IMG/VR virus record: IMGVR_UViG_2778261280_000005
Location: 1 to 40,563 of that record
DNA from: a virus
Lineage: Duplodnaviria > Heunggongvirae > Uroviricota > Caudoviricetes
Reading direction: 5' to 3' (one strand)
Length of the DNA stretch: 40,563 bases
Shown: piece after piece, positions 1,249 through 40,563 of the stretch
How positions within the stretch are numbered: position 1 is the first letter of the stretch
Layout: each line of letters starts with the position of its first letter
Program-made: the position numbers and the translations under genes
The notes under the pieces: generated by a model
Seen by the model: only the letters and a program-made list of their open reading frames with translations
What the model was told of the DNA's origin: nothing
The model's database searches: none

Positions 1249-1689
1249 ACGTAAACTTTTTCCGGTTGTTGTCGATAGCTCTATATCCCTCAACCGGAAA
1301 ATAATAATAGTAAAATGCTTAGCCCTGCTAATAATCGCCTAATCCAAACGCCTCATTCATGTTCTGGTACAGTCGCTCAAATGTACTTCAGATGCGCGGT
1401 TCGCTGATTTCCAGGACATTGTCGTCATTCAGTGACCTGTCCCGTGTATCACGGTCCTGCGAATTCATCAAGGAATGCATTGCGGAGTGAAGTATCGAGT
1501 CACGCCATATTTCGCTATCAGGATTCTGTGTGATGGTTACATCGCCCGGCCCAGGGCTGTTTAGTCATCAGCGCTTTCTGACAGTGCTGAGATTTCAACC
1601 TGTTGCAGTAAAAATGAGTAGATATAAGGCAAGTGTGCTGCCAAACCCATCTTTTACGGGGTGAAGGTAGATTTCGTTTGAAGGGTATC

Positions 1690-1704
1690 TGGTGTCCCCT
1701 GCAG
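1690..1704 (-). other. Putative att core: 15 bp identical to 3' end of tRNA-Arg (argW) including CCA
   Basis: tggtgtcccctgcag is the reverse complement of CTGCAGGGGACACCA, the argW 3' end as I recall it; sits at the host/phage transition between cscB flank and xis. Confidence 0.5.
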
Positions 1705-1777
1705 ACATCTACTTGGCGCGGCAGGGGATTGATTGGAATGGTATTTTTTAGATGTGAAAAATATTTTACCCGCTATT

Positions 1778-1978
1778 TTACCCATTCGCGCGGCTTAAGA
1801 GCTTATTTTTGAATTCACAATGGTCACGATATAACCATCTTGCTCGACCGTGGATAACTTTGGCTTTTGGCAGGTCGCCGGACTTAATCCGGTCGTAGAT
1901 GAAGGTTTTACCAAAGCCAGTATCGGCCATGATGAATTTCAAATCAACCAGTGAATCAGGCTGTAGTTCGTGTTGCAT
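1778..1978 (-). CDS. AlpA-family excisionase / HTH DNA-binding protein
   Basis: 66-aa ORF, ATG at 1978 with GGAG RBS; small basic HTH protein with ...GRARWLYRD... pattern typical of AlpA/Xis; first gene inside the att junction. Confidence 0.6.
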   Translation of the reverse strand: MQHELQPDSLVDLKFIMADTGFGKTFIYDRIKSGDLPKAKVIHGRARWLYRDHCEFKNKLLSRANG

Positions 1979-2022
1979 GAGTGCTATCTCCGAATAGGGA
2001 ATCGAACCTGCAAATCAGGCAA

Positions 2023-2043
2023 TAAAAAACCGCATTGATGCGG
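2023..2043 (-). terminator. Rho-independent terminator (minus strand)
   Basis: Hairpin ccgcattgatgcgg (2030-2043) preceded on + strand by aaaaaa (T-run on minus), downstream of the 114-aa gene. Confidence 0.5.
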
Positions 2044-2102
2044 CGATGGTAGGCCTTGATATCTTGAGAAATGAACAGGCCTCATCGAGTGTGAGGCTGT
2101 AG

Positions 2103-2447
2103 TTAGTCCTTGCGTAGCTCGCTAATTCTTCTGTAAGTCTCTGGTGCTTTGTTTCCGTGTATCTTCATTTCAGACTTCAACAGAGCAACGAGGGAATCCC
2201 ATTCGTTGAGGATTCCTTTGAATGCCGGAACGCGCTTTGCAACCTTGTCGAATGAATCTCTGATTTCTGGAATCTGCTCAACAAGTGCAACGCATCGCCG
2301 GAAATCGGCTGCGTCATGTGGAGCGCCGAAGTGATGACCATAGATATTCTTTTTCAGTCCACATGCGATTGAGGCAAGAGTTGCGCTACTGATGCCGACA
2401 TCGCCAGTCGATTGCCATTTCAAAACCTTCATAGCCAAATCTGACAT
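2103..2447 (-). CDS. Hypothetical protein (114 aa)
   Basis: ATG at 2447 with GGAGA RBS; no family recognised. Confidence 0.55.
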   Translation of the reverse strand: MSDLAMKVLKWQSTGDVGISSATLASIACGLKKNIYGHHFGAPHDAADFRRCVALVEQIPEIRDSFDKVAKRVPAFKGILNEWDSLVALLKSEMKIHGNKAPETYRRISELRKD

Positions 2448-2504
2448 TTCTTGTCTCCATAAAACAAAACCCGCCGTAGCGAGTTCAGATAAAAGAAATC
2501 CGCA

Positions 2505-3305
2505 TTAAGCGGCGTCGGTGAATTCAAATAAAAAACCGGCTTGCGCCGGCTCTCTCATCTTTCTGTCTACCCATGCTGATATCGATGGCGGGTGCACCTT
2601 TTCAATAGCAGCGCGAAGTACAGCTGTACGTGCCAGTTTGTCGGTAATCTCAGGAAATCGCTTCTCTGTCTTCGGTACGTTAACAGCAACATTAGTAGAA
2701 TCCGCACTGGCGAACGGATACATACCAAGAACTCTCACGTCGAGCATTCGAAGACCATGAATTTTCACTTTCAAATTACGATTGATATAAAGCTCAGTGA
2801 AAACTTCATCCATTCTCTGTTCCCACCATTTAGAGCGTATGTGCCTGTGTGGTCCGCAGCATCCAATCGCCACCCATTCAAATTTGCCAGAAAGGCGTAA
2901 AAGACGTTCAATTGATTCGTCGGTATGCCAGACCGGAACCGCTTTTGATTTTAGCCAATCAGGAACCAACTCAATCTGCTTGTCGTTTTCTGCCTCTGTC
3001 CCTTCGATAACGTCAGGTATAAGAAACCATTCAATTCTGCTGAACCACTTCCCAACAAAGTCGTAGAATTTTGCTCGTCTCTTACTCCAGTCTACCGGAG
3101 TGCCTTTCTTTAATGCTTTCATCCAGTCGCTAAAAGCGCCGTTATCAAGGCGTATATCACAAGGGAACATGGCAATCTTTTTCATCTGCTCTGGTCTGGC
3201 AAATGAAACAAAAGCCCCACCATCACGGTAAAGGGCTTTAATCAGCATATCTGTAGGGGCATGCTCATCCCCCCATATTGGGCTGCCGTGAAAGTGGATG
3301 GTCAT
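2505..3305 (-). CDS. Hypothetical protein (266 aa), function unknown
   Basis: Long ORF with ATG at 3305; flanked by hairpins on both sides; no motif I can assign with confidence. Confidence 0.7.
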   Translation of the reverse strand: MTIHFHGSPIWGDEHAPTDMLIKALYRDGGAFVSFARPEQMKKIAMFPCDIRLDNGAFSDWMKALKKGTPVDWSKRRAKFYDFVGKWFSRIEWFLIPDVIEGTEAENDKQIELVPDWLKSKAVPVWHTDESIERLLRLSGKFEWVAIGCCGPHRHIRSKWWEQRMDEVFTELYINRNLKVKIHGLRMLDVRVLGMYPFASADSTNVAVNVPKTEKRFPEITDKLARTAVLRAAIEKVHPPSISAWVDRKMREPAQAGFLFEFTDAA

Positions 3306-3347
3306 ATTATCCCCATATAAAAGAAATCCCCGCGAGTGCGAGGATTG

Positions 3348-3437
3348 TTATTGTCTTTTCTTCGTGCATTTGTCGCACTTTCGGCACCATCCAGATAGGC
3401 ACATCCGTCCGCAATTAACACATATAGGCCACATCAT
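3348..3437 (-). CDS. Small Cys-rich ORF (29 aa), possible zinc-ribbon peptide
   Basis: MMWPICVNCGRMCLSGWCRKCDKCTKKRQ; ATG overlaps the TGA of the upstream gene (TGATG) and follows GAGGA; below the 60-aa ORF-track threshold. Confidence 0.3.
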   Translation of the reverse strand: MMWPICVNCGRMCLSGWCRKCDKCTKKRQ

Positions 3438-3712
3438 TTTTCCTCTTTTGGTTTATGAATCTGAATGGTCATGCCGCTTTGAGTGGTGACTACAACGACA
3501 GAACCAGGCTGAAGACTGTTAAGATTGAATGCTTCGTAAAACGAATCCAAGGCCAGCGCTTTTTTATTCTTTCGGTTCCACCAACGCCATCCCTTGCTAC
3601 AGGCTACACTGACAATCCACTGTCCACTCCTGTAAGCCATATAAAACCAGATGAGCAAAACCTGAAGGAAGGCTATCCAGTCAATGATCGTATATTTCGC
3701 GAAGGAGTCCAT
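3434..3712 (-). CDS. Small membrane protein (92 aa)
   Basis: Internal ATG at 3712 preceded by AGGAGG and overlapping the upstream stop (TGATG); the track's longer version starts at TTG; hydrophobic segment IIDWIAFLQVLLIWFYMAY. Confidence 0.5.
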   Translation of the reverse strand: MDSFAKYTIIDWIAFLQVLLIWFYMAYRSGQWIVSVACSKGWRWWNRKNKKALALDSFYEAFNLNSLQPGSVVVVTTQSGMTIQIHKPKEEK

Positions 3713-3924
3713 CACTTCACCTCCTGCGCCGTTTTGATGATTGCTGCCAGACAATTCTTGCAAGGAACAAGCAGCGTTCCCTGCTCAATGCTCAACAGCG
3801 CGTGCTGAGCATCCTGAAACAACCAGTCTGAAAATTGTGGCGCATGTCCGCACCACGTTTCTATTTCATGCTTTGCAAGTTTAACTCCCTCTCGATAGTC
3901 ATATTTGATGATGTGCTTGCTCAC
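3712..3924 (-). CDS. Hypothetical protein (70 aa), GTG start
   Basis: ORF begins GTG overlapping the upstream stop (GTGA); contains C/H residues (WCGH...CKNC); weak support. Confidence 0.35.
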   Translation of the reverse strand: MSKHIIKYDYREGVKLAKHEIETWCGHAPQFSDWLFQDAQHALLSIEQGTLLVPCKNCLAAIIKTAQEVK

Positions 3925-4709
3925 GACTTAACCTCCTGTTTCGGCGCTGCTGGCATTTCACGCCAGTGCGTAACTGAGTGCGGATCCGGATATTCGGTGC
4001 CATCATCCCAGCGATTGCCATTCCACATTGCAGACCACATCTCACCGTCTTCATACATGACCATTACCGGAATTAACTTATCCGGCATTCTCTTACTACA
4101 GCTTATCCAACCATCCGGAGTTACCGGATAGTTGCCAGCCTGAACAGTAGGCATATCAGGACCTTTGCGAATCGCCCTGGCAAGATCGATTGGGTCGTCG
4201 TACAACCAGTCACCTGTTTGCGGATGATTGGCTTCTGCCAATTGTGCAGCCCACTCCAGGCCGTCTTTGTGTCCTTGCAGATAGTCCAGCGGTAACTCAT
4301 CACTATTACTTACAGGTTCGGCCTGAAGCATGGCGGCGCGGCAGGCGTTCCAGCCAGCTGTTCGCCCAAGCGCGTAAACTTCAGATGGCTCAAGATAATC
4401 AATGTCATGCCCGTCCTCATCGTCGTTCTCAGGTAATGCAGCAGGTACTACCGGTACTGGCGGAGCGGCGTAGACCTCAATAATTCCATTATCAATAGGC
4501 CATTCTCCATCCTTTAGGTAGTCACTTGTGCCGTCAACTTGCTGTTCTGCAATGTGGAATGCACCTATTGGTTTTGCTTCCAGCGATGCCAGAGCAATTC
4601 GTGCCAGTTCTTCCGCTTCTTCTGCTGGCAGTACAACGTTGCTACCAGGTCCGTATATTTCGCGCCACTGCTTGATTGTCAGCAGTCGCTCTTTGGTAAT
4701 AGTGGTCAT
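3921..4709 (-). CDS. Hypothetical protein with DUF551-like C-terminal domain
   Basis: 262-aa ORF, ATG at 4709; Trp/Asp-rich C-terminus resembling the DUF551 domain common in lambdoid early regions (recollection). Confidence 0.6.
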   Translation of the reverse strand: MTTITKERLLTIKQWREIYGPGSNVVLPAEEAEELARIALASLEAKPIGAFHIAEQQVDGTSDYLKDGEWPIDNGIIEVYAAPPVPVVPAALPENDDEDGHDIDYLEPSEVYALGRTAGWNACRAAMLQAEPVSNSDELPLDYLQGHKDGLEWAAQLAEANHPQTGDWLYDDPIDLARAIRKGPDMPTVQAGNYPVTPDGWISCSKRMPDKLIPVMVMYEDGEMWSAMWNGNRWDDGTEYPDPHSVTHWREMPAAPKQEVKS

Positions 4710-4711
4710 AG

Positions 4712-4903
4712 CTATTTCACCTTAATCTCAACATTTCGCAGTTTTAGCTCTACTGGCAGGTCTGACTTTCCGGTTAATGCTAATGCGAGATTTTCTGGAG
4801 TAATTAGAGCAGTTATTGTTTTCCCCATCGCCAGACGAATAATCATTCGTATTTCGCTATCGTCACATGCTCTTGGTCGAACAATTGATATTTGTCCGTT
4901 CAT
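4712..4903 (-). CDS. Hypothetical protein (63 aa)
   Basis: ATG at 4903 preceded by AAGGAG and overlapping the upstream stop; track ORF starts at TTG further upstream. Confidence 0.4.
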   Translation of the reverse strand: MNGQISIVRPRACDDSEIRMIIRLAMGKTITALITPENLALALTGKSDLPVELKLRNVEIKVK

Positions 4904-7039: not shown

Positions 7040-7528
7040 TTATTTGATAAGAAGTGAAGGTTTCCCAACTTTGAGTTGAGCGCCGGGGATATTTATTCCT
7101 GCTTTTAGTTGGTGTTTGATTGCCAGTTTGTCGGCTTTAATTGTCGTTTCAAACTCAACGTATTCAGGAGGAATGGCGCTTGAGTCGATGATTTCTACAG
7201 TTTCTGACGGTTTGCGGATTGTTACCTGGTGAATACCTGCTCTAATCTTTTTCTTGCCAACCATTTCAAGCGATGAGGCTATATATGCCATAATGCTGTC
7301 AATCTTATTTTGAATTACTGCGGCTCGCTCATTCAGTGACTTTGCCTCTTCCTTGAGGCGTTCAGCATAACCAGATTCATTTTTAATAATGGCAAGAAGT
7401 TGCTCTATTTTATCGGTAAATTCTCCTTCCATGCCTTCTATTGTGTCAGCAATCATCTCTGGTTCTAAATCTGAATCCATCAATTTTGCGTATTCATTGG
7501 CTATTTCATACAGTTTGCTCACTGGCAA
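7040..7528 (-). CDS. Gp157-like protein (recombination-module associated)
   Basis: 162-aa ORF immediately downstream of recT on the same strand; resembles the siphovirus Gp157 family by recollection. Confidence 0.5.
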   Translation of the reverse strand: MPVSKLYEIANEYAKLMDSDLEPEMIADTIEGMEGEFTDKIEQLLAIIKNESGYAERLKEEAKSLNERAAVIQNKIDSIMAYIASSLEMVGKKKIRAGIHQVTIRKPSETVEIIDSSAIPPEYVEFETTIKADKLAIKHQLKAGINIPGAQLKVGKPSLLIK

Positions 7529-8417
7529 CCTCCAGTTTCGCTTTGCATTCTATGTAAATGGCTTGTACGTTCTGCTGCAATTTCATTCCAGATGTCAGGC
7601 GATATGCTTCTGCAAAATATCGCTTCAAATCATCCATGTTTTCTGCCTGAGCCATTTCATCGCAAAGAAGTTGTACTTTATCCATTATTTCCTGCTGGCG
7701 TTTCCGTTCATCTTCGCGGATATCTTCCTCTGATTTGTGCGGCATAACTGGTTCAGTCCATACACCTTCTTCTTCGTTTAGTACGTGAATAGCACTATCA
7801 AGACGTGATGCCTTAGGCCAATACTTGCTTGCACGCTTTACGACCGTCTTTCGCGCCATCTCATTCCAGTGATTTACCCATGGTCCTTTATCGCTGAATG
7901 CTGCCTTGCTTGTTTTCCTTACAGCCTCAATTTCAGCCAGACTCATCTCTTCCGTTAGATAATCACCTGCTGGCGTCTTAACTGTGCAGTAAACGCCAAC
8001 AATATCACCACGATCACCGAAGGCGTTGTATTTATGGGTTGGTGCTTTATCAAGCCCGTTTGACTCATAGGTATCGTTAGCATGAACAAGTTTTGCCTGA
8101 CCCCATGATATAACACCAGACTCCATTGCAATATGGAGCAATCCCATATAACTGATATCAAGGCACACCATGCCGTCGCGCGGAACCAGATAAGCCAGTT
8201 TGCTAGCCGGGTTTAAGGTGATACCGATCGCCGCAACATTGATGATGGCGTTCTGTGCGCTGGTTGGATTTGCCAGTGCTGTTTTAGCCAGGTAATCATT
8301 TTTCTGGAAATACTGAATTGCAAACTGGCTTTCCTTAGCCCATGTCACCGTCTGTTCAGTCAATGCTCCGCAGAATAACTGCTCTTGCTGTTTAACGAAT
8401 TCAACGATATTGCTCAT
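7506..8417 (-). CDS. recT: RecT-family single-strand annealing recombinase
   Basis: 303-aa ORF; GPWVNHWNEMARKTVVKR matches the conserved RecT segment GPWVTHWEEMAKKTAIRR (recollection of Rac RecT). Confidence 0.85.
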   Translation of the reverse strand: MSNIVEFVKQQEQLFCGALTEQTVTWAKESQFAIQYFQKNDYLAKTALANPTSAQNAIINVAAIGITLNPASKLAYLVPRDGMVCLDISYMGLLHIAMESGVISWGQAKLVHANDTYESNGLDKAPTHKYNAFGDRGDIVGVYCTVKTPAGDYLTEEMSLAEIEAVRKTSKAAFSDKGPWVNHWNEMARKTVVKRASKYWPKASRLDSAIHVLNEEEGVWTEPVMPHKSEEDIREDERKRQQEIMDKVQLLCDEMAQAENMDDLKRYFAEAYRLTSGMKLQQNVQAIYIECKAKLEVASEQTV

Positions 8418-9448: not shown

Positions 9449-9748
9449 TCAAATAAGTGGTTTGCTGCCTAATTTCATTTTCTGGCGACCAACACAAGTC
9501 ACACCCATTTCACTGCGTGGCTTGCGGTAGTAAATACGGTTCTGTTTACTCTCGACTTCTTCTGCCTTCTTGCGGCAAAGGCTTCCGAGTGATGCTGCTT
9601 TATCTGCTCTGACGCAACCAGAGAGCTTTAGCGCAATTTTTCGCGCCAGTCGCTGTTCTTGCATTGCCTGTTCACGTTGAGCCTGTCTGCGTGCTCTGCG
9701 GCGATTTCTGGCGTTATCGTCAGCCAGATATGTAATGACTACTGTCAT
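9449..9748 (-). CDS. N: N-type transcription antiterminator
   Basis: 99-aa protein; arginine-rich N-terminal motif DNARNRRRARRQAQREQA; C-terminus ...GVTCVGRQKMKLGSKPLI matches lambda N ...GITCSGRQKIKGKSIPLI (recollection); nutL lies just upstream. Confidence 0.8.
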   Translation of the reverse strand: MTVVITYLADDNARNRRRARRQAQREQAMQEQRLARKIALKLSGCVRADKAASLGSLCRKKAEEVESKQNRIYYRKPRSEMGVTCVGRQKMKLGSKPLI

Positions 9749-10518: not shown

Positions 10519-11226
10519 TTACCAACTATGAGACGACCAGAATACTCTGCCAATAATCCTTACGGTTTCATGAAATTCATCTCTATCCATTACTTCATCC
10601 GGGTACTCTTCGCGATTTATTGATCTGATTATCACCGATGTAGGGGTGGCGATTAATGTTTTTACTCGTAACAAATCAGACTGGCAAATAGCGTAGGTTT
10701 TACCATCTCTGATTGTGGTATCTTGCGTGTTAACACCAACAACATCGCCATCGTGAAGCGTTGGTTCCATGCTTTGCCCTACAACCCTAACTAGCTTGGC
10801 TGATCTTTCTGATACTCCCATCTTTTTCAGATAGTGCTTTCTGAAAACCAAAGAGAACTCCGATGATTCCTCTAGCTCGCAGCTACCGCTTCCAGCTGAA
10901 AGCGAAACGTTAAGAAGAGGCAACGCAACAAACTCGTCATCGTTTCTTTTAATGTCTTCCCATACCACAGCTTTTAAAGATGACTCACGGACATTGGATG
11001 GTTCTTCATGTGCACCATCCCTCATTTCACCAATACCAGAACTAAGCCATTCAGGACGCACTTTTAAAGCATTGGCTAATTCAACCATCTTGCGAGATCC
11101 GTTTGTTTTACCGGACGACATCTTCTGTATGGCTGGCTGAGATATTCCAACCATGTCAGCAAGCTGTGATTGTGATACCCCTGCTGAGCTCATGGCTGCA
11201 TTTAGTCTTTCTGCGAATGTTTTCAT
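10519..11226 (-). CDS. cI: CI-type prophage repressor (HTH plus LexA-like S24 peptidase domain)
   Basis: Start re-set to ATG at 11226 (track start at 11256 is TTG); N-terminal HTH (SQSQLADMVGISQPAIQKM), C-terminal S24-like segment (...VVGQSMEPTLHDGDVV...); divergent from cro with three operators between. Confidence 0.85.
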   Translation of the reverse strand: MKTFAERLNAAMSSAGVSQSQLADMVGISQPAIQKMSSGKTNGSRKMVELANALKVRPEWLSSGIGEMRDGAHEEPSNVRESSLKAVVWEDIKRNDDEFVALPLLNVSLSAGSGSCELEESSEFSLVFRKHYLKKMGVSERSAKLVRVVGQSMEPTLHDGDVVGVNTQDTTIRDGKTYAICQSDLLRVKTLIATPTSVIIRSINREEYPDEVMDRDEFHETVRIIGRVFWSSHSW

Positions 11227-11238
11227 ACCCACAAATCT

Positions 11239-11301
11239 ATAACTACGGTTATCCAAAGTAAAATAACAAAGGTTATTGCTATTTTTTATAACTTGAGTTA
11301 T
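11239..11301. promoter_or_regulatory. OR operators (three ATAAC-N4-GTTAT sites) with pRM/pR
   Basis: ATAACTACGGTTAT (11239-11252), ATAACAAAGGTTAT (11263-11276), ATAACTTGAGTTAT (11288-11301); centre spacing about 24-25 bp, between divergent cI and cro. Confidence 0.6.
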
Positions 11302-18412: not shown

Positions 18413-18487
18413 GGGTCAGTCGTATAAAGGTCATTACGGAAGGCTGTTAACCTTCTTATCGTGGTTCGAGTCCACGCTGTCCCGCCA
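18413..18487 (+). tRNA. tRNA-Asn-like (anticodon GUU), phage-encoded
   Basis: Manual fold: acceptor GGGTCAG/CTGTCCC (one T-T mismatch), D-loop with GG, anticodon arm GAAGG-CTGTTAA-CCTTC, T-arm CGTGG-TTCGAGT-CCACG, 3' GCCA; the imperfect acceptor stem lowers confidence. Confidence 0.55.
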
Positions 18488-18492
18488 AACAT

Positions 18493-18568
18493 GCTGGTTT
18501 AGCTCCAATGGTAGAGCAGTCGCCTTGTAAGCGAATGGGTAGCGGTTCAAGTCCGTTAACCAGCACCA
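18493..18568 (+). tRNA. tRNA-Thr (anticodon UGU), phage-encoded
   Basis: Manual fold: perfect 7-bp acceptor GCTGGTT/AACCAGC, D-arm GCTC-CAATGGTA-GAGC, anticodon loop CTTGTAA, T-arm AGCGG-TTCAAGT-CCGTT, discriminator A plus CCA; 76 nt. Confidence 0.75.
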
Positions 18569-39405: not shown

Positions 39406-40563
39406 TCACTCCACCTTTTCATCAAGCCAATCTGCCCACCACTGCATCATTTCTCTGCGCTTATCGAGATACTGAGCATGGTTGTAAATTCCACGCACAG
39501 ATCCGCCGTTGGCATGTGCCAGTTGCACTTCAATAGCGTCAGCAGGCCATTCGTGCTCGTTCATAATCGTGCTGAATTCATGCCTGAATCCGTGACCGCT
39601 TTCCAGACCTTCATAGCCGATTTGTTTGATCACAAGTAGCACCGCGTTCTCGCAGATTGGCTTCTTCTTATCGTTGCGCCCGGCAAAAACAAACTCTGAT
39701 ACTGGTTTGGTGATTGAGCTTAGCGTAGTGAGAAGTTCAACCACCTGGTCTGACATCGGGACCACATGAATCTTTCGGCCCTTCATCACACTGGCGTCGA
39801 TGGTGATAATCCTGTTTTCAAAATCGACGTTCTTCCATAGCATGGAACGAAGCTCTTTTGTTCTTAGGGCTGTGTAGCGTAAAACTTTGGTCGCAATGAG
39901 CGATACGATACTTCCTGAAAATGTTGCCAGTGCTTTGTTGAATGCAGGCATCTGGTCTGCTGGAAGGAACGGGAAGTTCTTCTTGCGGTATCCTTTCATG
40001 GCGTCTGCAAGGTCAGGTGCCGGGTTATATTTAGCCCTTCCGGTGACAATAGCGTAACGAAAAACCTCGCCGCATCTTCTGCGGGCTTTGTTGGCTCGCT
40101 CCATTGCACCGCGATCTTCAAATCTGCGGATTACTTCCAGCAGTTGCATCGGCTCAATATCCTGAATTTCAAGGCCGCCGATGATAGGTAAAATGTCGTC
40201 ATCAAACATTTTTGCAAGTTCAGTCGCATACCCTACAGACCAGACTTGCTTCTTGTGCTCGTACCATTCCTTGTAAATCGCACTAAATGAATTGTTGTTA
40301 GACGAAGCTTTTTTCGCCTTTACCGGATCGATGCCAACCGAGATGTCTTTCCTCGCAGTCCATGCCTTATCCCTTGCCTCCTGCAAAGTCATTAGCGGAT
40401 ATTTTCCTACGGTCAGGATTTTCTCCTTACCGTCAATCTTGTAGCGAAGCTGCCATACCTTTTTCCCGGATACAGGGACATAAAGGTACAGGCCATTACC
40501 ATCGAGAAGGCGGTATGGTTTTTCTTTCGGCTTTGCTGCTTCAATCTGCTTAACGGTGAGCAT
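39406..40563 (-). CDS. int: Tyrosine integrase (P4/IntS-type, tRNA-targeting)
   Basis: 385 aa; start codon is the last 3 nt of the window; C-terminal catalytic region with ...HGFRHEF... and ...RGIYNHAQY... (R/H-x-x-R/Y motifs). Confidence 0.9.
   Translation of the reverse strand: MLTVKQIEAAKPKEKPYRLLDGNGLYLYVPVSGKKVWQLRYKIDGKEKILTVGKYPLMTLQEARDKAWTARKDISVGIDPVKAKKASSNNNSFSAIYKEWYEHKKQVWSVGYATELAKMFDDDILPIIGGLEIQDIEPMQLLEVIRRFEDRGAMERANKARRRCGEVFRYAIVTGRAKYNPAPDLADAMKGYRKKNFPFLPADQMPAFNKALATFSGSIVSLIATKVLRYTALRTKELRSMLWKNVDFENRIITIDASVMKGRKIHVVPMSDQVVELLTTLSSITKPVSEFVFAGRNDKKKPICENAVLLVIKQIGYEGLESGHGFRHEFSTIMNEHEWPADAIEVQLAHANGGSVRGIYNHAQYLDKRREMMQWWADWLDEKVE

Follow-up and report, generated by a model that had tools for sequence, protein, structure and literature searches.

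Among the closest described systems are the DpdA proteins of phages 9g and CAjan, which are validated preQ0 transglycosylases of the DpdA1 subfamily; FolE, QueD, QueE and QueC are encoded alongside them (plus Gat-QueC in 9g), and 25–32% of G is replaced. When 9g dpdA was expressed alone in E. coli, with no phage helper, preQ0 was inserted in DNA at 0.3% of G (PMC6884629). Phages that carry dpdA alone give two further reference points: the DNA of Salmonella phage 7-11, a virulent 90-kb DpdA-only phage, contains dADG at 50 per 10^6 nt, or 0.02% of G, and the DNA of Mycobacterium phage Orion, a singleton dpdA carrier, is without modification. In addition, gp29 of phage HK106 (YP_007151699) has been given as DpdA in a phage without other deazaguanine genes (Hutinet et al. 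2019, PMC6884629, Supplementary Data 1). The bacterial enzyme of S. Montevideo (PDB 7UI4) is a 413-aa protein with a large Ins8 insertion that depends on the ATPase DpdB and acts together with DpdC and restriction genes. Our literature searches found no functional studies on ORF114, on DpdA in prophages or temperate phages, or on HK106 together with DpdA.

In this study, we analyzed a viral DNA of 40,563 nucleotides (IMG/VR record IMGVR_UViG_2778261280_000005; hereafter, the window), in which an earlier note had described a 266-aa gene, a 114-aa gene and a Cys-rich mini-ORF as one terminator-bounded cargo cassette of unknown function next to xis and att. We conclude that the 266-aa gene is probably a singleton phage dpdA, whose product, a TIM-barrel member of the TGT superfamily, would act on double-stranded DNA by exchange with a host-derived 7-deazaguanine.

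Location of the region within the prophage

The window starts with the sucrose permease gene cscB (positions 1–1248), after which a lambdoid prophage begins, and the integrase gene (39406–40563) lies at the opposite end. All prophage genes from approximately 10.5 kb down to 1.8 kb are on the minus strand. This block contains, upstream of the 266-aa gene and on the same strand, a cI-like repressor gene (10519–11256), an N-like antiterminator gene (9449..9748, minus strand; phrog_271, E = 9.2e-36) and recT (7506–8417), followed by Ea22/DUF551-type genes and a gene for a 109-aa DUF4752 protein (3434..3763, minus strand; PF15944, E = 5.7e-36). The three ORFs of the earlier note were found on the minus strand at its coordinates, namely 3348..3437 (29 aa), 2505..3305 (266 aa) and 2103..2447 (114 aa), and the order along this strand is DUF4752, the 29-aa Cys peptide, the terminator tL4, the 266-aa gene, the 114-aa gene, the terminator t'I and torI (xis). 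The last of these, a 66-aa torI-type excisionase gene at the prophage end (1778..1978, minus strand; phrog_66), occupies the position annotated as torI in E. coli MS14384, and the placement of the region next to xis and att therefore holds. The region forms the distal end of this lambdoid prophage's early-left operon, which is under N antitermination.

A terminator scan of positions 1250–4800 yielded 8 terminator-like sites, compared with 3.5 ± 2.2 in shuffled sequences, and for five hairpins the folding energies (ΔG) ranged from –8.3 to –16.8 kcal/mol, with z values of –2.0 to –5.2 against shuffled controls. Two of them were identified by alignment to the phage 434 record M60848, in which int, xis, t'I, ORF114, ORF55 and tL4 are annotated: the hairpin at 3325..3346 (minus strand; ΔG = –13.1 kcal/mol, z = –3.9), directly upstream of the 266-aa gene, aligns to tL4, and the hairpin with a T-run at 2029..2044 (minus strand; ΔG = –8.3 kcal/mol, z = –2.0), downstream of the 114-aa gene, aligns to t'I. 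These correspond to the hairpin region (3306–3347) and the terminator (2023–2043) that had been noted before. A further hairpin lies at 2079–2097 (ΔG = –9.8 kcal/mol, z = –3.6). As for the additional hairpins previously assigned to the interval 2448–2560, the one at 2467..2486 (minus strand; ΔG = –11.0 kcal/mol, z = –3.1) is indeed intergenic, between the 266-aa and 114-aa genes, and its counterpart in 434 and mEp213 directly follows tL4; the strongest, at 2530..2555 (minus strand; ΔG = –16.8 kcal/mol, z = –5.2), instead falls within the coding sequence of the 266-aa gene, in its last ~17 codons, where it overlaps the low-confidence C-terminal tail of the predicted structure (pLDDT < 50, residues 256–266).

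The 266-aa protein belongs to the DpdA family

The 266-aa protein matched phrog_887, labeled 'queuine tRNA-ribosyltransferase', over residues 1–265 with an E value of 2.5e-102, and the validated 9g DpdA matched the same PHROG with an E value of 2e-98. We compared a family profile of 36 homologues with 9g DpdA using hhalign, and obtained a probability of 92.9% (E = 3.7e-7) with the motif pairs LDNGAFS/LDSGAFS, VPVWH/LPCFH, KIHGL/KVHGF and SADST/SCDSS; the 9g-type motifs D-x-G-A-F, W/F-H, K-[IV]-H-G and D-S are thus all present in the 266-aa protein. None of the 36 homologues, the most distant at 45% identity, differs at D54, D98, H127, H183 or D202. Of these, D54 (LDNGAF) and D202 (ADS) align to D72 and D215 of 9g and are the predicted catalytic pair, because the published mechanism of S. 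Montevideo DpdA assigns the equivalent roles to Asp95 (general acid/base, in D-x-G-x-F) and Asp256 (nucleophile, in D-S) (PMC10164549). H183 (KIHGL) aligns with H196 of 9g (KVHGF), the conserved His that separates DpdA from DpdA2, which lacks it (PMC6884629); the 266-aa protein is accordingly a DpdA1-type enzyme. The AlphaFold model (pLDDT 91.6) has a TGT-like (β/α)8 barrel fold, and the nearest solved fold is that of the DNA enzyme DpdA.

Comparison with individual phages gave the same picture. The protein is 98.5% identical to HK106 gp29, which likewise lies behind DUF4752, the 29-aa ORF and tL4 in a genome with no preQ0 genes; downstream, HK106 differs in having ORF55 and a lambda-type xis-int, in place of the ORF114 and torI of the window. 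It is 58% identical to the DpdA of phage 7-11 (gp032), with which it shares the catalytic motifs and which is its closest relative for which phage DNA has been analysed. Unlike the dpdA genes of 9g and CAjan, that of the window stands alone, is about 50 aa shorter and belongs to a temperate phage, and the Ins8 insertion of the bacterial enzyme is absent here, as are dpdB, dpdC and the restriction genes. With HK106 gp29, the gene has already been published as a predicted singleton DpdA.

No match to the 266-aa protein was found in Pfam (up to E = 0.1), NCBIfam, PADLOC or PDB sequence and profile searches, and scans of the 114-aa and 29-aa proteins against Pfam, NCBIfam and PADLOC gave nothing relevant. 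This silence is weak counter-evidence, because the validated 9g DpdA also has no Pfam match. It explains why a transglycosylase-like assignment had been judged insupportable in the earlier note, which had itself called for Pfam and PADLOC searches, and it is consistent with the label 'hypothetical protein' in 30/30 sampled NCBI records from the 82 E. coli genomes that carry the gene. The PHROG and hhalign matches, the fold, the identity to the HK106 and 7-11 proteins and the genomic context described below support exactly the assignment that had been set aside. The broader suggestion of att-proximal, early-left accessory cargo, possibly for DNA modification, fits the 266-aa gene.

Genomic partners of dpdA and selection on the gene

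We examined the neighborhoods of 79 IMG/VR loci with dpdA relatives, grouped by identity to the protein of the window. In 21 of the 79, the gene immediately upstream of dpdA, which has the same orientation and runs up to the dpdA start, encodes a PF02592 (VUT/YhhQ-like) membrane protein, and this is the sole neighbor family that was found across identity classes. The pairing was present in 8/8 loci of 83–87% identity, 2/5 of 69–78%, 10/12 of 57–66% and 1/25 of 40–48%, whereas it was absent from all 29 loci of the ≥98% E. coli clade. It is also annotated in Vibrio phage PS25B.1 and coliphage Phleasolo, and one locus (L047) has the order VUT-dpdA-ORF114-torI at the same site as in the window. 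YhhQ is a preQ0 transporter, as cited by Hutinet et al. (PMC6884629). A dpdA homologue of 76% identity, with VUT upstream, encodes a 460-aa fusion with a phage N6-adenine DNA methylase (Dam), which points to DNA as the substrate. In the window itself, tblastn with 9g FolE, QueD, Gat-QueC and QueE found none of these genes, and dpdA is therefore a singleton; the link to 7-deazaguanine precursor supply is made by the VUT genes beside orthologues of 57–87% identity, with no Que or VUT gene in the window.

This distribution raises the possibility that dpdA persists in E. coli as a functionally silent remnant after the loss of a YhhQ-like partner. The complete loss of VUT from the ≥98% clade, compared with its retention throughout the 83–87% clade, would agree with such a fate, as would the existence of truncated copies (L068, L069 and 154-aa clusters), the presence of dpdA in only 82/5426 complete E. 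coli genomes and the unmodified DNA of the singleton carrier Orion. However, the catalytic residues are intact, and dN/dS is well below 1 even in the VUT-less E. coli clade (about 0.05–0.5; 0.02–0.07 in comparison with the 83–87% alleles), which indicates that the gene is maintained by selection. Moreover, preQ0 synthesis and a yhhQ gene are native to E. coli, and 9g DpdA needs no partner for insertion of preQ0 in this host. We consequently regard the remnant explanation as unlikely.

We also considered the possibility that the protein is a tRNA-guanine transglycosylase that acts on host or phage tRNA, in a queuosine- or archaeosine-like manner, rather than on DNA. TGTs bind zinc via a C-terminal Cys cluster (a CxCxxC...H subdomain). 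The 266-aa protein has only three Cys residues (49, 149 and 150), with no conserved cluster, and ends 64 residues after D202. The Pfam TGT model (PF01702) was unmatched up to E = 0.1, and no signal was obtained when the family profile was aligned to one E. coli Tgt sequence with hhalign (probability 0.6%). In addition, the nearest solved fold and the nearest validated sequence relative, 9g DpdA, are both those of DNA modifiers, and the methylase fused to the 76% homologue is a DNA enzyme. A tRNA target is thus improbable, and a DNA-acting DpdA remains the preferred reading.

Other uses of the TGT fold, among them deazaguanylation of proteins (the activity of CBASS Cap10), a DNA glycosylase activity or the exclusion of incoming modified phages, are very improbable: no QueC homologue of the kind expected for a type IV CBASS context (QueC-like Cap9) was found in the window or in the neighbor clusters, nor were a CD-NTase or a restriction partner found nearby; PADLOC gave no match; dpdA lies behind terminators in a repressed early-left operon, so that expression in a lysogen is unlikely; and a gene linked to both a preQ0 transporter and a Dam domain more probably serves to insert bases in DNA. 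As for the bacterial Dpd restriction-modification system, dpdB, dpdC and dpdD–K are not among the neighbors, which are ordinary lambdoid early-left genes.

Modular structure of the region

We compared the modules of the region with HK106, 434, mEp213, Gally and E. coli MS14384 by BLAST and junction alignment. The next hairpin and ORF55 directly follow the tL4 hairpin and its T-tract (…GGGGATTTCTTTTAT) in 434, mEp213 and Gally. Compared with these phages, the dpdA unit of the window is an insertion of ~0.83 kb exactly behind the tL4 T-tract, which comprises a Shine-Dalgarno sequence (GGGGA), the 266-aa ORF and, at its end, a second copy of GGATTTCTTTTAT. As shown by alignment with mEp213 and 434, the insertion is bounded by this 13-bp direct repeat, whose upstream copy (3317..3329, minus strand) is the T-tract of tL4 and whose downstream copy lies at 2489..2501 (minus strand). 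HK106 carries the same dpdA insertion without ORF114; phages 434, mEp213 and Gally carry ORF114 without the insertion. The lambdap35 homologue ORF55 is missing from the window, present in HK106, 434 and mEp213, and a pseudogene in MS14384.

Judged from these alignments, the region is an ordinary phage mosaic of three independent modules and not a new cassette. The 266-aa and 114-aa genes had been taken for a compact unit, with the mini-ORF as a coupled third member, and yet each of the two occurs alone. That their products act jointly as a two-component system is highly unlikely: they are same-strand neighbors in the window and in L047, and ORF114 lies within ~0.6 kb downstream of dpdA in 10/29 IMG/VR loci of ≥98% identity, but HK106 has dpdA without ORF114, relatives of ORF114 occur without dpdA in Stx phages, P22-like phages, PY54 and Vibrio phages as well as in 434, mEp213 and Gally, the ORF55 pseudogene sits between the two genes in MS14384, and two hairpins separate them in the window.

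The 114-aa protein and the 29-aa peptide

The 114-aa protein belongs to the phage 434 ORF114 family (phrog_1229, E = 7e-52), and its gene is a module independent of dpdA. It shares 94.6% DNA identity and the same flanking terminators with 434 ORF114, and like 434 ORF114 and HK022 p30 (~94% DNA identity) it lies between tL4/ORF55 and t'I-xis, with no notable difference. The family comprises about 2800 clusters, is widespread irrespective of dpdA, and has no Pfam model and no solved fold. One relative was found on ~57-kb contigs, and we therefore considered a link between ORF114 and deazaguanine phages; this was rejected, since members of the family occur across many phages that are unrelated to one another.

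The 29-aa ORF is translationally coupled to DUF4752, with whose stop codon it overlaps (ATGA at 3434–3437). Its coding pattern was matched at 76 IMG/VR loci, 62 of them lambdoid-type; in these 62, it follows DUF4752 without exception, while dpdA is downstream in only two. The coupling proposed in the earlier note is therefore real with respect to DUF4752 and does not extend to dpdA, from which the peptide is separated by tL4. The 20 peptide variants in IMG/VR retain the core MWPICxxCGRMCxxxWCxKCDK, and divergent copies occur in the unrelated virulent phages C1, KFS-SE2 and Citrobacter Tr1, where an overlap with the stop codon of the preceding gene is likewise seen; a terminator follows the ORF in C1 and KFS-SE2. 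Five of its Cys residues are conserved and the sixth is not, and the copy in phage JEP4 is without three of these. The 29-aa peptide is the product of a real, conserved gene. The idea that it might supply the short DpdA with a zinc subdomain in trans was rejected: its constant partner in the lambdoid-type loci is DUF4752, it is present in mEp213, Gally, C1, KFS-SE2 and Tr1 with no dpdA nearby, and the validated 9g DpdA also has no Cys cluster.

Proposed mechanism

The family membership, catalytic motifs, fold, gene context, insertion boundaries and purifying selection described above rest on the analyses themselves, whereas the base used, DNA as the target in this host, the time of expression and a protective role are proposals. 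A scan found no promoter-like site near dpdA, which has its own Shine-Dalgarno sequence. Because the gene lies directly behind tL4, its expression would depend on active N antitermination and would be confined to infection or induction, and during lytic growth the PL transcript would read through tL4 into dpdA. By homology, base exchange would take place in duplex DNA through an Asp/Asp double displacement. In analogy with the DpdA proteins of phage 9g and Salmonella, D202 would attack C1' of the target deoxyguanosine with D54 as general acid/base; guanine would then leave, and a free 7-deazaguanine base, either preQ0 or possibly preQ1 or a derivative, would enter. As the window has neither preQ0-synthesis genes nor a YhhQ-like importer, the enzyme would draw this base (preQ0 or a different intermediate of queuosine synthesis) from the host pool, whether produced by the queuosine pathway of E. 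coli or taken up by the host YhhQ. With the host as the only supply, sparse modification, below about 1% of G, would be expected, in line with the values for 9g dpdA alone in E. coli (0.3% of G) and for phage 7-11 DNA (0.02% of G). The dpdA product may thereby mark replicating phage DNA against restriction.

Implications

A more far-reaching proposal is that DpdA, without its transporter, draws on a small host preQ0/preQ1 pool and writes sparse and motif-specific 7-deazaguanine marks on the DNA of a temperate coliphage, and possibly on host DNA after induction, and that, separately, ORF114 represents an uncharacterised host-takeover or anti-defence family; we hold this proposal only tentatively and consider it unlikely. 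If it is true, sparse marks would be enough to alter the outcome against particular restriction systems or deazaguanine-sensing glycosylases, and the prophage would provide the first demonstration of hypermodified guanine in a lambdoid coliphage. Naming the gene correctly as dpdA would flag prophages that may release 7-deazaguanine-bearing DNA. Hutinet et al. (2019) raised the question of whether DpdA-only temperate phages modify DNA from host precursors alone, and the lambdoid prophage described here, together with phage HK106, would offer a genetically easy test system for DpdA-only modification. The answer would matter for restriction evasion, for defences that rely on Dag-type glycosylases, and for artefacts in sequencing at modified G.

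Coding extent of dpdA and its association with transporter and methylase genes

The final ~17 codons of dpdA (window positions 2505–2555), which encodes the predicted DNA guanine transglycosylase, cross a strong terminator hairpin (ΔG of –16.8 kcal/mol). Because the C-terminal tail of DpdA is poorly conserved and is predicted with a pLDDT of <50, functional DpdA is likely to terminate at around residue 250. A homologue with 76% identity to the window DpdA is fused to Dam, a phage N6-adenine methylase, in a protein of 460 aa, and the 'EPAQAGFL' linker of this fusion matches the terminator-encoded tail of the window DpdA. At the fusion loci (L013:5540–7383 and L051:5001–6383), a VUT (YhhQ-like, preQ0-transporter family) gene lies upstream of the fusion gene and overlaps it.

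A two-gene VUT–dpdA module was found in 21 of 79 IMG/VR loci (among L043–L067; for example, L047:4540–5798), and the transporter is lost or lacking in the E. coli clade whose DpdA is ≥98% identical to that of the window, the window included. Some E. coli dpdA copies (clusters P0020 and P0021; L068:5384–5797 and L069:4432–4845) are cut down to the C-terminal or N-terminal half, with products of 154 aa; therefore, dpdA is not intact in every prophage.

Gene content around dpdA

The torI-type excisionase gene (1778–1978) and the integrase gene (39406–40563) lie at opposing ends of the prophage, as in KplE1/CPS-53. Genes for tRNA-Asn(GTT) and tRNA-Thr(TGT) are located within the prophage (18413–18568).

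The ORF114 family, represented in the window at 2103–2447, is a large one, with 2814 clusters when grouped at 50% identity (E ≤ 0.001), yet it has no model in Pfam or NCBIfam and no solved fold. An ORF114-like C-terminal domain was also observed in P0288, which is 558 aa long, carries the domains of a CCA-adding enzyme (PolyA_pol head, RNA-binding and HD) and is known from one 1.9-kb contig. In HK106, 434, mEp213 and Gally, ORF55 (a lambdap35 homologue) sits between dpdA or tL4, the terminator upstream of dpdA, and ORF114/xis, whereas it is not present in the window (2445–2504); in E. coli MS14384, it is a pseudogene. A 27-bp stretch of the window (2445–2471) matches both flanks of mEp213 ORF55, which suggests that ORF55 was lost by deletion between repeats.

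The 29-aa Cys-rich peptide (3348–3437; L007, L008 and L009:1501–1578; L010:1501–1590) retains the core MWPICxxCGRMCxxxWCxKCDK among lambdoid phages, and is also conserved in virulent phages unrelated to these (Deseoctovirus C1, Skatevirus KFS-SE2 and Citrobacter phage Tr1). Its ORF overlaps the stop codon of the preceding gene in every case; the JEP4 copy is missing three cysteines.

Upstream of tL4, the window carries DUF4752 and this mini-ORF, whereas an ASCH-domain gene is annotated alongside dpdA in E. coli W (NC_017664.1) and several other strains. If positioned upstream of tL4, the ASCH-domain gene would be a further sign that this terminator marks a mosaic junction.
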